Shown here: piece by piece, positions 3,541 through 16,499 of the stretch | Layout: every line of letters starts with the position of its first letter | Numbering within the stretch: position 1 is the stretch's first letter | Source: Actinomycetota bacterium | Lineage (GTDB): Bacteria; Actinomycetota; Actinomycetes; Propionibacteriales; Propionibacteriaceae | Direction of reading: 5' to 3' | DNA length: 24,000 nucleotides | NCBI GenBank assembly: GCA_020161755.1 | Contig: JAIUOS010000001.1 | Coordinates: 186,633 to 210,632 of the forward strand | Position numbers and translations under genes: made by a program | The notes under the pieces: generated by a model | What the model was told of the DNA's origin: nothing | Databases searched by the model: none | The model's input: the letters and a program-made list of their open reading frames with translations, nothing else

Positions 3541-4472
3541 CGCGCGCTCCGTCGCGGACGCGCGTCCCGGTCGCGCGTGAACCAGAACTGCAACGCGGAC
3601 GCGATGGTGATGATCACCACGAGCAGCCAGGCGATCGCGCTGGCGTAGCCGAAGTCGAACTGCCGGAACGCGACCTTGTACAGGTACAGCACCGGGGTGA
3701 GCGTGGCGTTGTTCGGCCCACCGCCGGTGAGGATGAAGTTCTCGTCGAACAGCTGGAGTGCGCCGATTGTCGAGGTCACCGTGGTGAACACCAGTACGGC
3801 GCGCAGTTGCGGCACCACGACCCTGCTGAAGATCGCCCAGGCGCCGGCGCCGTCCACCCGCGCGGCCTCGTACTGCTCGGCCGGGATCGCCTGGAGCCCG
3901 GCGAGGATGATCACCATGTTGTAGCCGGTCCAGCGCCAGGTGATGGACGCGATCACCGCGACCTTCGCCCACACCTCGTTGTTCAGCCAGTCGACCGGCG
4001 CGATGCCGACCAGGCCCAGCAGCTGGTTGACCAGGCCGCCGTCGGTGGCGAGCATCACCCGGAACACCACCGAGTAGGCGACCAGGGTCGTCACCGCGGG
4101 CAGGAAGTAGGCCAGCCGGAACCCGGTGCGCCACTTCAGCCAGGACTGGTTCAGCACGTAGGCGATGCCGAGCGCCAGCGCGATCATCAGCGGCACCTGC
4201 ACCACCAGGATGATCCCGGCGTTCACCAGGGACTGGGCGACCAGCGGGTCCTCGGCCAGCCGGGCGTAGTTCGCCGTCCCGACCGGACGGGACACCCCGC
4301 CCTTGGTGCTGAAGAAGCTCTGGATCAGGGACGCGACCAGCGGGTAGGCGAAGAACAGGCCGAACAGTGCCAGCGCCGGCAGCGAGAACCACAGGCCCGG
4401 CCGGGCGAGCCGGCGGCCGAGGCGGGTGGATCCCCGCACCCGGCCGCCGGGCCGCGTCGCCGTCGCGGTCAT
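3537..4472 (-). CDS. ABC sugar transporter permease (MalF-type)
   Basis: Lies within track ORF 3537..5642. ATG at 4472 (MTATATRPGGRVRGSTRLGRRLARPGLWFSLPALALFGLFF...) overlaps the SBP stop as ATGA. EAA motif YEAARVDGAGAWAIFSRVVVP. Confidence 0.85.
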   Translation of the reverse strand: MTATATRPGGRVRGSTRLGRRLARPGLWFSLPALALFGLFFAYPLVASLIQSFFSTKGGVSRPVGTANYARLAEDPLVAQSLVNAGIILVVQVPLMIALALGIAYVLNQSWLKWRTGFRLAYFLPAVTTLVAYSVVFRVMLATDGGLVNQLLGLVGIAPVDWLNNEVWAKVAVIASITWRWTGYNMVIILAGLQAIPAEQYEAARVDGAGAWAIFSRVVVPQLRAVLVFTTVTSTIGALQLFDENFILTGGGPNNATLTPVLYLYKVAFRQFDFGYASAIAWLLVVIITIASALQFWFTRDRDARPRRSAR

Positions 4473-5809: not shown

Positions 5810-5838
5810 ACTGTATTCAGAATACGGGGCGGCGTACA
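5810..5838 (-). promoter_or_regulatory. Putative promoter plus GntR-type operator (site 1) of the 5782..2722 importer operon
   Basis: Palindrome TGTATTCAGAATACG at 5812..5826, 30 nt upstream of the ATG at 5782. On the minus strand: TGTACG (5838..5833), 17 nt, TACAGT (5815..5810). The operator overlaps the spacer and the -10. Confidence 0.5.
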
Positions 5839-5875
5839 GGGGCGGCGGTCAGGTTCTTCGCCGGCCTGCTCTCCT

Positions 5876-5947
5876 GTCCGCTTCCCTCCCCCGTCCGCTT
5901 CCCTCCCCCCGTCCGCCTCCCTCCCCCGTCCGCTTCCCCCGGCCCCC
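5876..5947. repeat. Tandem repeat, about 4 copies of 17-18-bp unit GTCCGCTTCCCTCCCCC (C-rich on +, G-rich on -)
   Basis: Units read directly at 5876..5892, 5893..5910 and 5911..5927, with a degenerate copy at 5928..5947. Non-coding region between the importer promoter and the hairpin repeat. Confidence 0.8.
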
Positions 5948-5951
5948 GTGC

Positions 5952-6028
5952 AAACGCCCCCGAAGTTGACAAACGCCCCCGAAATTTCGGGGGCGTTTGT
6001 GAGTTTCGGGGGCGTTTGCGGGGGACGG
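5952..6028. repeat. 77-bp direct repeat, left copy. Two-tier hairpin built from 4 copies of CAAACGCCCCCGAA (2 direct, 2 inverted). Probable terminator downstream of the 6113..7039 gene.
   Basis: 74/77 identical to 7176..7252. Outer arms 5951..5964 and 6005..6018, inner perfect 15-bp arms 5970..5984 and 5985..5999. Lies 85 nt past the stop at 6113. Confidence 0.85.
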
Positions 6029-6043
6029 GTGACGGGCGGACGG

Positions 6044-6099
6044 GCGTGCCGGGCTGGGCCGGACGGACGACGAGCGTGCCGGACCGGGCCGGACGGACG
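6044..6099. repeat. Imperfect tandem repeat, 2 copies of GCGTGCCGGRCYGGGCCGGACGGACG (30-bp period), G-rich on +
   Basis: Copies at 6044..6069 and 6074..6099, 24/26 identical. Embedded in GGACGG-rich sequence from 6019 to 6112. Confidence 0.7.
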
Positions 6100-6112
6100 G
6101 GCGTCCGCGGGC

Positions 6113-7039
6113 TCAGAGCCGGACGAGGGGCACGGCGTGGCCGGTGATCCGCTCGGGACGGGCCTGGGCGAAGGCGCCGCGGACGCGGCGTCCCAGCTCG
6201 ACGGCGCGAAGGTCCGACCAGCCCCAGCGCACCACGATCCAGCCGGCGTCGCGCAGGAGCGCCTCGCGACGCCTCTCGCGCATCACCACCTCGGTGACCT
6301 CGTCGGACGGTCCGATGTACTTCACCCTGCCGTCGAACTCGCCCAGGACCCCGAGCCCGAGCCAGCCGAAGTCGGAGCGGGCCAGCCAGTTGCCGGCGGC
6401 GTCGTAGACGTTGAGCTGGAGTTCGGGCGCGGGCAGCCGGGCGTCCGACAGCCGGATGCGGCTGAGCGACTCCCCGACGCTCTCCGACCGTCCGTCGGCG
6501 AACGCGAGGACCGCCCGCGCCGTCCCCACGCCGGACCGTCCGCGCGCGAGGGCAAGAGCGTCCGCGATCGTGGCCCGGTCGGCACCCGCGTGCAGCGCGG
6601 CGTCCAGGATCGCCACCCCCTTCTCGTAGGGCAGCGTGCGTGCGAGGTCGAGGGCGGTGCGTTCGATCGTGGTCACGCGGAGCCCCTCGACCTCGGTGAC
6701 CTCGCCGGTGGTGAGGGGTGCCAGGCGCACCCGCAGGTGGGGCGCCGTCCGGCCGTGGCCGCCCGACTCGCGCGTGATCGACACCCGCTCCAGCATCCCG
6801 TCCCACAGCGGGAGCCCGTGGAGGACGGCCGCGCTCCCGTGGCTCAGCACCGCCGCTTCGCCGAGCAGCGTCCACGTCCCGGCGACGAGCTGGCGGTGCC
6901 GCGCGAGCGCATCCGTCCCGAGCTCGGTCGCGTACGCGCCATGCCGGACGCGGCCCAGCATCCCGGCTTTCGCCTGCCTCCGCAGCGCCTGGGGAGAGGT
7001 CCCCTGGTGCACGAGCTCCTGCGCCCTCGTCACGTCCAT
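6113..7039 (-). CDS. AbiEi-like wHTH domain / DUF559 (Vsr-like PD-(D/E)xK endonuclease-fold) fusion protein, function unknown
   Basis: Track ORF 6113..7168. I prefer the ATG at 7039 (MDVTRAQELVHQGTSPQALRRQAKAGMLGRVRHGAY...). The N-terminus resembles AbiEi_4-type antitoxin/regulator domains. The C-terminus (SDFGW...GEFDGRVKY...RERRREALLRDAGWIVVRW) resembles DUF559. The family call is from memory of these domains, not from a search. Confidence 0.6.
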   Translation of the reverse strand: MDVTRAQELVHQGTSPQALRRQAKAGMLGRVRHGAYATELGTDALARHRQLVAGTWTLLGEAAVLSHGSAAVLHGLPLWDGMLERVSITRESGGHGRTAPHLRVRLAPLTTGEVTEVEGLRVTTIERTALDLARTLPYEKGVAILDAALHAGADRATIADALALARGRSGVGTARAVLAFADGRSESVGESLSRIRLSDARLPAPELQLNVYDAAGNWLARSDFGWLGLGVLGEFDGRVKYIGPSDEVTEVVMRERRREALLRDAGWIVVRWGWSDLRAVELGRRVRGAFAQARPERITGHAVPLVRL

Positions 7040-7091
7040 GACCCCAGCCGACAGCTCCGCGCGAGGCCTGCGCAAGGGCTCGGACCAGACG

Positions 7092-7163
7092 GACAACACC
7101 TGCGGGCAAATTGACAACACCCTGTGAGTCGCCGGACAACACCTGGCCCCGCCGGACAACACC
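7092..7163. repeat. Four phased direct repeats (iterons) with core GACAACACC, upstream of the 7039 start
   Basis: Cores at 7092..7100, 7113..7121, 7135..7143 and 7155..7163, spaced 21, 22 and 20 bp. The last two copies share 14 nt, CGCCGGACAACACC (7130..7143 and 7150..7163). Confidence 0.8.
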
Positions 7164-7175
7164 GCCACCCCGCAG

Positions 7176-7252
7176 AAACGCCCCCGAAGTTGACAAACGC
7201 CCCCGAGATTTCAGGGGCGTTTGTCAGTTTCGGGGGCGTTTGCGGGGGACGG
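7176..7252. repeat. 77-bp direct repeat, right copy (hairpin slightly degenerate). Probable terminator downstream of the GntR gene.
   Basis: 74/77 identical to 5952..6028. The 3 differences (7207, 7213, 7225) weaken the inner stem and change the internal loop. Lies 30 nt past the GntR stop at 7282. Confidence 0.85.
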
Positions 7253-7281
7253 ACGGCTGCGGCCAGCAGGGCCGGAAGGAG

Positions 7282-7938
7282 TCAGGCGGTCAGGTAGGTG
7301 CTGCTGGCCTGCATCAGGATGCGCTTGGCGCCGTTCACCCAGTTGGCCTGGAGGGCGTCCTTGGCGCCGGGGATGTCGCCGTCCTCGAGGCAGCGGGCGA
7401 TTGCGGCGTGCTCGGCGGCCACGCGTCCCATCACGGCCTCGTTCGGCACCAGCAGCGACTCGTACCGGTGGAACGACTGCCGGACGGTCGCGATCAGCGA
7501 CAGCAGCCTCTGGTTCGGGCACGCGCTCAGCATCACGCCGTGCCACTCGTCGTCGCGGGTCATGATCATCGAGTGGGCGGCCACCTCGCTGTCGAACTCG
7601 GCGGCCAGTTTGGCCAGTCGCGCGGCGAGCTTCTGCATCTTCGCCGGCGGGCTGAGCTCGATCGCCAGCCCCTCCAGGGCCGAGATCACGGGTGCCAGCT
7701 CCTCGAACTCGCGCGCGCTGAGGGCGGCGAACCGGAACCCCTTGCCGCTCTCGCTCTCGATCTGGCCCTCGGTCTCCAGCGCGATCAGCGCCTCGCGCAG
7801 CGGCGTCCGGCTCACGCCGATCTCGGCGGCCAGCTGCACCTCGTTGATGCCCTCTCCCGGCGTCACCGCCCCGGTGCGCATGCGGGTGAGGAGTTCGTCG
7901 CGGACCTGCTCACGCAACGCTCGGCGCTCGATTGCCAT
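7282..7938 (-). CDS. GntR-family transcriptional regulator (FadR/FCD subfamily)
   Basis: Lies within track ORF 7282..8283. ATG at 7938 (MAIERRALREQVRDELL...) is preceded by AGGAGGAG. wHTH INEVQLAAEIGVSRTPLREALIALETEG, followed by an all-helical C-terminal domain of FCD size (218 aa in total). Confidence 0.85.
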   Translation of the reverse strand: MAIERRALREQVRDELLTRMRTGAVTPGEGINEVQLAAEIGVSRTPLREALIALETEGQIESESGKGFRFAALSAREFEELAPVISALEGLAIELSPPAKMQKLAARLAKLAAEFDSEVAAHSMIMTRDDEWHGVMLSACPNQRLLSLIATVRQSFHRYESLLVPNEAVMGRVAAEHAAIARCLEDGDIPGAKDALQANWVNGAKRILMQASSTYLTA

Positions 7939-8010: not shown

Positions 8011-8040
8011 TTGCGGTTTTGTATTCAGTATTCCTAGTGT
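8011..8040 (+). promoter_or_regulatory. Putative promoter plus GntR-type operator (site 2) in the divergent GntR/ebgA-like intergenic region
   Basis: TGTATTCAGTATTCC at 8020..8034. Candidate -35 TTGCGG at 8011..8016, 18 nt spacer, -10 TAGTGT at 8035..8040. The site is 48 nt before the ATG at 8082 and 82 nt from the GntR ATG. Confidence 0.45.
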
Positions 8041-11582: not shown

Positions 11583-11614
11583 TTGACGTCCCAGAACACT
11601 GTATGCAGAATACA
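11583..11614 (+). promoter_or_regulatory. Putative promoter plus GntR-type operator (site 3) of the second importer/GH63 operon
   Basis: -35 TTGACG at 11583..11588, 17 nt spacer, -10 CAGAAT at 11606..11611. Near-perfect palindrome TGTATGCAGAATACA at 11600..11614 overlaps the -10. It lies 37 nt before the ATG at 11651. Confidence 0.5.
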
Positions 11615-12979: not shown

Positions 12980-13905
12980 CGACCACCCGTCCCGCGCCGG
13001 CCGTGCCCGCCGTCCGCCGCACCGCGGCGTGGCGGCGGCGCGACCGGCGCTGGGGCTGGGTGTTCGTCGGACCCCAGCTGATCGGCATGGTGCTGTTCAT
13101 CCTGGGTCCGTTCGTGGCCAGCCTCGTGCTGGCCTTCGCCTCCTGGGACGGGCTCACCGCCCTGAAGTGGGTGGGGCTGGCCAACTTCGTCGACCAGCTC
13201 ACCGACGAACTGCTGCTGAAGTCCATCGTCAACACCCTGCTGATCGCCCTGATCACCGTGCCGGTCGGCCTGGCGCTGGCCCTGCTGATCGCCGTCGCCC
13301 TGGAGAAGCTGCGGACGCGGTCGCTCTACCTCGTCCTGTTCTTCGCCCCGGTGGTGACCAGCACGGTGGCGGTCGCGATGATCTGGCAGCAGCTGTTCCG
13401 CGCCGACGGCGTGCTCAGCGGCTTCATCGCCAGCACCTTCCACATCGACCCGCCCGACTGGCTGGGCGACCCGCACCTTGCGCTGATCTCGGTCTGCATC
13501 GTCACGATCTGGAGCTCGGTCGGCCTCAACGCGGTGATCTTCCTCGCCGGCCTCCAGGGCATCTCGCCGTCCCTGATCGAGGCCGCGCAGCTGGACGGTG
13601 CCGGCGCCTGGTCACTGCTCACCCGGATCCGGATGCCGCTGATCTCGCCGATCATCTTCTTCTCCACGATCGTGGCGTTCATCTCCTCGCTGCAGACGTT
13701 CGACACGGTGTTCGTCCTCACCGCGGACGCCGGTCCCGACAACGCCACCCGCACGATCGTCTACCACATCTACGACCTGGGCTTCGGCCGCTTCGAGTTC
13801 GGCCCGTCCAGCGCCGCGTCGGTGATCCTGCTGGTGCTCACGCTGGTGATCACCGGCCTCCAGTTCGCCGCGCAGAAGCGCTTCGTCCACTACGAGAGCG
13901 ACTGA
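12976..13905 (+). CDS. ABC sugar transporter permease (MalF-type)
   Basis: GTG at 12976 overlaps the SBP stop (GTGA). EAA motif IEAAQLDGAGAWSLLTRIRMP. Multiple TM segments. Confidence 0.85.
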   Translation: MTTTRPAPAVPAVRRTAAWRRRDRRWGWVFVGPQLIGMVLFILGPFVASLVLAFASWDGLTALKWVGLANFVDQLTDELLLKSIVNTLLIALITVPVGLALALLIAVALEKLRTRSLYLVLFFAPVVTSTVAVAMIWQQLFRADGVLSGFIASTFHIDPPDWLGDPHLALISVCIVTIWSSVGLNAVIFLAGLQGISPSLIEAAQLDGAGAWSLLTRIRMPLISPIIFFSTIVAFISSLQTFDTVFVLTADAGPDNATRTIVYHIYDLGFGRFEFGPSSAASVILLVLTLVITGLQFAAQKRFVHYESD

Positions 13906-16438: not shown

Positions 16439-16470
16439 CCGGCACCCGACGTCGCCGGATACTGAATACA
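16435..16470 (+). promoter_or_regulatory. Putative internal promoter plus GntR-type operator (site 4) upstream of the P-protein-like operon
   Basis: -35 TTGACC at 16435..16440 contains the GH63-like TGA stop. 17 nt spacer, then -10 GATACT at 16458..16463. CGGATACTGAATACA at 16456..16470 is the reverse complement of TGTATTCAGTATCCG. It lies 30 nt before the ATG at 16500. Confidence 0.5.
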
Positions 16471-16499
16471 ACATACAAAGTGCAGCCAGGAGGATGCCG

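Follow-up and report, generated by a model that had tools for sequence, protein, structure and literature searches.

The 24,000-nt window analysed here (the whole stretch of high-G+C actinobacterial DNA from contig JAIUOS010000001.1, positions 186,633 to 210,632) holds, between a gntR regulator gene and an importer operon, an inserted segment of about 1.43 kb in which a single gene is flanked by two long palindromes. The gene encodes a 308-amino-acid protein that combines an AbiEi-like part with a predicted Vsr-like nuclease domain, and homologues of the window's genes come mostly from Propionicimonas and relatives. The explanation that best fits the observations, to which we assign a probability of about one half, is that positions ~5855–7284 are a self-contained one-gene cassette, whose palindromes are four-site binding arrays for the encoded protein and form one unit with the gene.

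The cassette is an insertion, and both palindromes arrived with it. Comparison was made with three relatives that have GntR orthologues 86–88% identical to that of the window on long contigs (L210, a Propionicimonas metagenome-assembled genome; L211/L212; and L213), all of which share the neighbouring genes, namely beta-galactosidase, gntR, the solute-binding protein gene and the permease genes. In these relatives gntR and the importer gene are only 80–92 bp apart, and the spacers contain no open reading frame, no hairpin and no copy of AAACGCCCCCGAA, the motif from which the window's palindromes are built. The operator-promoter segment of the importer (…CCCTGTACG…GTATTCTGAATACAGTAT…GAGGAGG) aligns between the relatives and the window, and the ~1.43 kb between the gntR stop and this segment is extra in the window; it is therefore an insertion, as an earlier reading of the sequence (the first-pass annotation) had supposed. 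The inserted DNA is delimited by the palindromes and carries one gene only. It parts the GntR regulator from the operon that adjoins it in the relatives, leaving the operator intact. Neither of the two outcomes that the first-pass annotation had named as speaking against its proposal, a vertically inherited two-hairpin arrangement in all relatives with the repeat as a ubiquitous intergenic element, or a C-terminal domain lacking nuclease catalytic residues, was found at the window locus. Contigs of the same strain are all 100% identical to the window, so no empty site occurs among them. The features of the inserted segment and its junctions are the following.

5844..5854, no strand: 11-bp direct repeat GGCGGTCAGGT, copy 1, the outer insertion junction on the importer side; aligns with the ancestral TGACCGCCG of the L210 empty site
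5855..7284, minus strand: whole inserted cassette, ~1.43 kb, absent from the orthologous gntR-importer spacers; contains the 5' palindrome, the box region, the gene, the 3' palindrome and G/C-rich tandem repeats
5876..5938, no strand: 17-bp tandem repeat (GTCCGCTTCCCTCCCCC, 3.6 copies), outside the 3' palindrome (TRF)
5944..6028, no strand: 3' palindrome of four AAACGCCCCCGAA units, located downstream of the gene's stop (repeat search, folding)
6031..6099, no strand: 30-bp tandem repeat, 2.3 copies, between the 3' palindrome and the stop codon (TRF)
6113..7039, minus strand: gene for the 308-amino-acid protein, AbiEi-like part plus predicted Vsr-like nuclease domain (PADLOC, AlphaFold, Foldseek)
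7092..7163, minus strand: four exact GGTGTTGTC boxes at 20–22 nt spacing, 53–124 nt upstream of the ATG
7168..7252, no strand: 5' palindrome, upstream of the gene's box region (repeat search, folding)
7285..7295, no strand: second copy of the 11-bp direct repeat GGCGGTCAGGT, within the 3' end of gntR

The 11-bp repeat GGCGGTCAGGT stands at both junctions, and these are its sole two copies in the window (0.04 expected). One copy lies inside the coding end of gntR, and the other matches ancestral spacer sequence in L210. The copies may be pre-existing sequence or microhomology rather than a target duplication, since target duplication was not seen across the family.

The palindromes are the two copies of an 85-nt direct repeat found by a repeat search of the window (5944–6028 and 7168–7252; 93% identity, 1224 bp apart). 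The first-pass annotation had described them as 77-bp repeats, 74/77 identical and 1224 bp apart, that enclose one minus-strand gene, and had placed the right copy just past the gntR stop and the left copy near the importer operator. All of this holds: the two copies differ at three positions inside the 77-nt span (5952–6028 and 7176–7252), and the distance to the gntR stop (7282–7284) is 30 nt for the right copy, while the left is about 120 nt from the operator GTATTCAGAATAC at 5813–5825. The repeats enclose one open reading frame (6113–7039, minus strand) and its 128-nt 5' region; the ATG at 7039 agrees with the MDVTRA start in homologues, and gntR (7282–7938), the solute-binding-protein gene (starting at about 5797) and the cassette gene itself all share the minus strand. 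Each copy of the repeat is a nested palindrome of four AAACGCCCCCGAA units, two forward and then two reverse; the window contains eight matches to this unit against 0.46 expected, a number reached in none of 100 shuffles. Either strand of each palindrome gives one long hairpin, with RNA folding energies of -70 to -76 kcal/mol (z about -10 to -12) and DNA folding energies of -43.0 and -41.1 kcal/mol for the two palindromes (z about -10). The view that the left hairpin is perfect and the right one damaged survives in part: two changes in the right copy weaken the apex, but the third (G to C, TGTGAG to TGTCAG) closes an internal loop, so that the two copies are about equally stable, and both have drifted away from a perfect ancestor.

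The same arrangement recurs around related genes at other sites. The closest homologue, P0001 (69% identical; locus L006), has ilvC on one side and a P-type ATPase gene on the other and is flanked by a related nested palindrome pair of its own, and a scan of metagenomes added 80 further loci with proteins of 37–60% identity. Of the palindromes of 50–104 nt in 505 kb of metagenome loci, 39 lay within 350 nt of the family gene and seven elsewhere. When palindromes were called from a gapped self-complement score with a threshold at the 99th percentile of 430 control windows, one was present at 36 of the 55 loci with complete flanks (on both sides at 19, upstream only at 10 and downstream only at 7). 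With the pair at L006, this shows paralogues to be generally flanked by such repeats, a point that the first-pass annotation had proposed to test. Because homologues at unrelated sites each have their own pair, of different sequence, the insertion was not directed to a structured repeat, and the palindromes belong to the cassette. Their position is constant, the upstream palindrome ending ~70–150 nt before the start codon and the downstream one beginning ~5–120 nt after the stop. Their sequences differ between subfamilies (for example CGCTCCCGAA, GTCTGCTCG, GGTGTTCGA, GTTGCTCAG and GCGCACC), and their design is constant: four copies of a 9–13 nt motif, with two direct copies in each arm, two forward and then two reverse. 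Across 70 palindromes, the frequency of matches within an arm was highest for offsets of 19 nt (0.456) and 20 nt (0.376); other offsets gave ~0.28. The same motif thus occurs in inner and outer stems at a fixed period, which points to an array of four protein sites and not to a mere hairpin. The centre is AT-richer than the remainder (0.42 vs 0.27–0.32), and the C-rich arm always comes first; a C-rich-then-G-rich skew reaches ±90 nt around the palindromes family-wide.

The palindromes also vary together with the protein. The two palindromes of a locus had a median identity of 0.78, higher at 22 of 28 loci than the best identity to a palindrome from another locus, and palindrome similarity rose with protein identity (Spearman rho 0.44); the window palindromes are nearest to those of L006, which is also the closest in protein. 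Similarity within the locus and with the protein shows that gene and palindromes are coupled.

The encoded protein comprises an AbiEi-like winged helix-turn-helix (wHTH) domain and AbiEi C-domain (residues ~1–180) followed by a Vsr-like PD-(D/E)xK domain (~183–308). PADLOC models of AbiEi match residues 10–178 (E 1e-14); in Pfam the window protein matches AbiEi_1 and AbiEi_4 below threshold only, and AbiEi_4 matches 21 of 26 aligned family members. An AlphaFold model of the full protein, built on the 26-sequence family alignment, had a predicted local distance difference test score (pLDDT) of 91.5, and its best Foldseek matches in the PDB were AbiEi (6y8q, E 1.3e-5) and Rv2827c (1zel, E 6e-5), followed by Vsr. 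For a separate model of residues 180–308 (pLDDT 91) the top match was Vsr (1cw0; probability 0.97, TM 0.62, root-mean-square deviation 3.8 Å) and the second the catalytic domain of the homing endonuclease I-Bth0305I (3r3p; probability 0.90). Residues D223, D236, K240, E186 and E190 are invariant across the family, at least 90% of members have E234, and the conserved residues sit in SES.GES, ARSDFGW and GEFDGR.KY. The C-terminal domain is thus predicted to be a Vsr-type PD-(D/E)xK fold, that is, an alpha-beta-beta-beta-alpha-beta core in which strands 2 and 3 bear the conserved acidic residues and lysine. The label AbiEi/DUF559 given by the first-pass annotation was right in the AbiEi-like N-terminal two thirds and in the nuclease fold, for which the Vsr-type model and the invariant D223, D236 and K240 speak, but not in the Pfam family: DUF559 (PF04480) was matched neither by the window protein at E up to 10 nor by the 26 aligned members at E up to 1. 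Pfam Vsr likewise had no match in the window protein or the 26 aligned members, two of which weakly matched REase_MTES_1575, and searches of NCBIfam, PDB sequences and PHROGs with the protein gave nothing useful. As had been stated earlier, no AbiEii partner, transposase or integrase adjoins the gene.

The ratio of nonsynonymous to synonymous divergence (dN/dS) was 0.08–0.34 in ten related family pairs, like that of real genes alongside, and the purifying selection so indicated means that the family consists of working genes. A profile search found 25,277 clusters at 50% identity (E up to 1e-3), of which 3,337 at E up to 1e-30; most of those listed with the best scores have a length of about 300 amino acids. 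They are currently annotated only as 'AbiEi antitoxin domain protein' or 'hypothetical'. One member, P0119, on a 678-kb contig, is out of frame after its SDFG motif and appears to be a frameshifted pseudogene.

A second conserved element lies upstream of the gene. The sequence GTT(G/A)TCCACAGAT is strongly enriched in the 160 nt upstream of family genes, TCCACAGA being present in 29 of 68 upstream regions and in 1 of 1907 control windows. If up to one mismatch is allowed, TT(G/A)TCCACA occurs at 44 of 68 loci (background 0.02 per 260 nt), and its matches cluster at -110 to -50, with 43 of 51 on the gene's strand. Most of the distant family members (loci L138–L203) carry GTT(G/A)TCCACAGAT 50–110 nt upstream, and alignment of upstream regions anchored on the motif revealed no other comparable conservation save one marginal column. 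This 9-mer is identical to the published high-affinity DnaA box, TTGTCCACA in Mycobacterium tuberculosis and Streptomyces coelicolor and TTATCCACA in Escherichia coli (PMC4285127). The DnaA-box-like motif is absent from the window and its subgroup, which have in its place two to four GGTGTTGTC(C/A) boxes; all four exact copies of GGTGTTGTC in the window fall within 7092..7163. Candidate readers of the upstream box are DnaA, the conserved wHTH of the cassette protein and a sigma factor.

A mechanism in keeping with these observations begins with binding. As monomers, AbiEi and Rv2827c occupy two or four inverted repeats of 23 bp, and they autoregulate (PMC7319586); it is for this reason that each cassette palindrome is read as four putative sites to which the encoded protein would bind. 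Occupancy of the 5' array, and perhaps of the boxes as well, would autoregulate the gene, and occupancy of both arrays would mark where the unit ends. At these ends the nuclease domain could introduce nicks or cuts, possibly on extruded cruciforms favoured by the AT-richer centres, and from time to time such cuts would promote copying of the unit to another site or recombinational exchange, so that the gene and its two arrays would evolve and move as one. We infer the binding from likeness to AbiEi and Rv2827c; cleavage and movement are speculation, and the account is at its weakest in how the unit moves. A bolder proposition is that the family forms an unrecognised class of selfish or mobile elements in actinobacteria, in which an AbiEi-Vsr nuclease uses co-evolving end palindromes, perhaps as cruciforms, for copying or exchange that needs no transposase or integrase, with expression tied to replication through the DnaA-box-type element; this is a good deal more doubtful, and we consider it unlikely.

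In favour of movement are the filled and empty states of the gntR site and the many unrelated contexts in which family genes are found. In a distance tree, copies at the ilvC site interleave with copies elsewhere, and the one from L006 forms a pair with the copy of the window. A number of findings weigh against a mobile unit with its own binding arrays. No significant palindrome was called at 19 of the 55 loci with complete flanks. In 23 other cassettes the longest flanking direct repeats were at the null level (7.65 vs 7.51); an 11-nt flanking repeat is reached by only 1.6% of null pairs, and the 11-mer of the window is an isolated outlier. Outer terminal inverted repeats beyond the palindromes are not significant, 258 of 500 shuffles scoring at least as high. 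Identical copies of the window protein are found in one context only, and P0024, seen in 53 contigs, has a single context in all 24 that were read and so gives no sign of recent copies at multiple sites. Collections of plasmids and phages yielded weak and rare matches only. The ilvC-linked copy is syntenic over many genomes, at no fewer than 11 loci (L006, ten from the set of 80 metagenome loci, and L192, judged on its downstream flank), as well as in 24 of 24 contigs read for one IlvC protein. Foldseek gave weak E-values (0.13) for the nuclease fold, yet the two top matches agree. The family-conserved upstream box might itself be the candidate site of the conserved wHTH, in which case the palindromes would be left to another factor.

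The ilvC site deserves separate mention here. Copies directly downstream of ilvC are present in many Propionicimonas-like genomes (L006, L128, L130, L132, L133, L134, L137, L160, L174, L198, L192 and L214–L216), and in L006 the family gene starts 4 nt past the ilvC stop. No empty ilvC site was seen, every contig read carrying the cassette. The cassette proteins at this site are 41–61% identical, against 81–98% for IlvC, and in the orthologous pair L174/L198 synonymous divergence (dS) is 0.73 vs 0.153 for ilvC (4.8 times) and nonsynonymous divergence (dN) 0.152 vs 0.012 (12 times). Replacement of cassettes at an ilvC hotspot is not claimed, as these rates show that divergence in place could suffice; that the divergence at ilvC can be explained by fast evolution in place is a further point against movement.

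Much of this would suit an ordinary, vertically inherited regulator or repair nuclease gene with operator-like sites, whose paralogue in the window arose through duplication or horizontal gene transfer and whose protein has no role in movement. Such a gene would be expected to show the synteny with ilvC, the purifying selection, the single context of identical proteins and the want of a target duplication or terminal repeat, and the rate excess in L174/L198 could explain the identities of about 50% elsewhere. It sits less well with presence and absence at the gntR site, with the many contexts and the interleaving of ilvC-site copies with others in the tree, with inserted DNA that is bounded by palindromes and carries no other gene, and with the size and diversity of the family, which runs to the 25,277 clusters. 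This explanation is to be taken seriously, although we judge it somewhat unlikely.

It is improbable that the palindromes are bidirectional terminators or insulators which act as RNA hairpins, shield the neighbouring genes and are not recognised by the encoded protein. Their positions, past the gntR stop and past the cassette stop, would be suitable, the folding energies are very strong, the GC stems in the window are flanked by AAA and TTT, and a simple hairpin AAACGCCCCCGA..TCGGGGGCGTTT is generic in Pseudomonas, Hymenobacter and many others among the matches listed. A hairpin, however, needs no motif shared by inner and outer stems at a period of 19–20 nt. Mismatches in the stems were A.C in 39 cases and G.T (G.U in RNA) in 31, and the lack of a G.U-over-A.C bias argues against selection on RNA structure. 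A terminator scan made no call at either window palindrome, strong as the stems are, and found no T-run; most palindromes of the family are likewise without a T tract. That the palindromes diverge together with the protein and stay matched within a locus also speaks for the reading as protein-binding arrays. Rfam returned for window positions 5949–6020 eukaryotic miRNA families only (mir-4477 and mir-4436, 31–42 bits against a gathering score of 74), matches that are below threshold and an artefact of the long perfect hairpin.

A single-chain toxin-antitoxin or abortive-infection module, in which a Vsr-like toxin is curbed by the fused AbiEi part, with palindromes and boxes as operators and a function in phage defence or addiction, is quite improbable. 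The PADLOC match to AbiEi, the autoregulation of AbiEi proteins through inverted repeats, and the diversity and fast evolution of the family all lend it something. Against it, the AbiEii partner is absent, the neighbours are housekeeping genes with no defence-island context in the loci examined, the array downstream of the gene is left unexplained, and there were no matches in PHROG and almost none in phages.

Two other explanations may be dealt with briefly. The gene does lie between two palindromes, inside which assembly contigs break, in the manner of a REPtron, but it is very improbable that its nuclease disperses the palindrome genome-wide as RAYT does REP, since the protein is not an HUH/Y1 enzyme and no convincing solo copies of 76 palindromes were found in 452 kb of DNA surrounding 80 or more cassettes, nor any in the rest of the 24-kb window, which has only the two copies, so that the palindromes are not a dispersed intergenic repeat. 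Equally hard to credit is the scheme of the first-pass annotation in which gntR was once followed by a single terminator hairpin that was duplicated, as a long target-site duplication, when the gene was inserted into or next to it: two direct copies do bracket exactly one gene, and the 5' copy does lie just past the gntR stop, where a terminator is expected, but the spacers of L210, L211/L212 and L213 are free of hairpins, and homologues at unrelated sites carry different palindrome pairs of their own.

Some further features were observed in and around these loci. The tandem repeats at 5876–5938 and 6031–6099 are G-rich on the gene's sense strand, with many runs of three or more G that, judged by sequence, could form G-quadruplexes; similar G-rich repeats lie downstream of the 3' palindromes in L132 and L133. 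Independent metagenome assemblies of the same strain break within the palindromes, as is expected for repeated palindromic sequence (L122 and L123 end at 7216, L005 spans 5998–7205, and L004 starts at 6011). Another long palindrome, sharing GGGACGGTTCC...GGAACCGTCCC, occurs far from the family gene in L006 (18904–18966) and L175 (4366–4421), two unrelated loci, and possibly belongs to another repeat family. Elsewhere in the window, the palindromic operator-like sequence GTATTCWGWATAC occurs four times (5813–5825, 8021–8033, 11601–11613 and 16457–16469; 0.07 expected), in front of the importer, in the divergent region between gntR and beta-galactosidase, ahead of another solute-binding protein gene, and ahead of a gene whose start is near 16494. 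As each site fronts a sugar-utilisation gene or operon, the four probably represent the regulon of the GntR/FCD regulator at 7282–7938. A 131-nt inverted repeat (3809–3939 and 13509–13639, 73% identity) falls in the two ABC-importer gene clusters, which are on opposite strands; in all likelihood it represents coding sequence of paralogous permeases.

If the palindromes are the protein's own sites, the family would consist of matched pairs of a nuclease and a recognition unit of ~19 bp, with thousands of diverged specificities, and so would offer a data set for a recognition code and a possible source of programmable site-specific binders or nucleases. If the unit moves itself, it would be a case of DNA mobility by a restriction-fold nuclease and palindromic ends, with no transposase. 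In either event the locus is a caution for annotation, as 'orphan antitoxin' labels can hide a different kind of element.

Among known systems, AbiE, a toxin-antitoxin system of type IV, is like the cassette in the N-terminal wHTH and the domain that follows it, which match in profile and in fold, and the inverted-repeat arrays of AbiEi and Rv2827c, with units of roughly 23 bp, resemble the four-unit arrays of the cassette with their period of 19–20 nt. Unlike AbiE, the cassette has no AbiEii (DUF1814) partner, its neighbours in the window being gntR and the solute-binding protein gene, and no conserved partner gene was seen in L006, L204 or L214; its protein has the Vsr-like nuclease fused at the C-terminus; its arrays lie upstream (100–150 nt) and downstream of the gene and not over the promoter; and it behaves as an insertion unit. 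The branch of Vsr, DUF559 and I-Bth0305I (EDxHD) provides the top structural matches of the C-terminal domain, and the DUF559 pattern ExDGxxH is paralleled by D...ExDGxxK in the cassette family; Pfam gives no match, however, and the cassette gene is not in an intron or intein.

REPtrons and the IS200/IS605 elements, which have hairpin ends, are similar in having one nuclease-type gene between palindromic repeats and no target duplication. They differ in that the enzyme of the cassette is a PD-(D/E)xK nuclease plus wHTH and not HUH/Y1, its palindromes are not dispersed as solos, and each of its ends is a complete four-site palindrome. A free-standing homing endonuclease gene is also a small one-gene nuclease unit between conserved host genes, present or absent between related genomes at one site. 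In the case of the cassette, no cognate target can be seen at the empty gntR-importer site, since the palindrome motif is missing from it; the cassette is found on chromosomes and is not phage-borne, and two intact presumed recognition arrays flank the gene. Control regions of iteron-type replicons combine a wHTH Rep protein, iterons of 19–22 bp, DnaA boxes and an inverted-repeat operator, and the cassette resembles them in having a wHTH gene beside repeats with a period of ~20 bp and, in most of the distant members, the DnaA-box-like 9-mer; it differs in being chromosomal and rare on plasmids, in its nuclease domain, and in that no AT-rich unwinding region was identified. From classical insertion sequences and transposons it is distinguished by the lack of a transposase or integrase gene, of significant terminal repeats and of a target duplication of fixed length. 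Searches of the literature on AbiEi or DUF559 with palindromes, Vsr or Actinobacteria turned up no description of the layout of one gene with two palindromes. Set beside these systems, the cassette is recognisable as an AbiEi-family DNA-binding module with repeat arrays, with a real, if unproven, chance of being a new kind of mobile unit.

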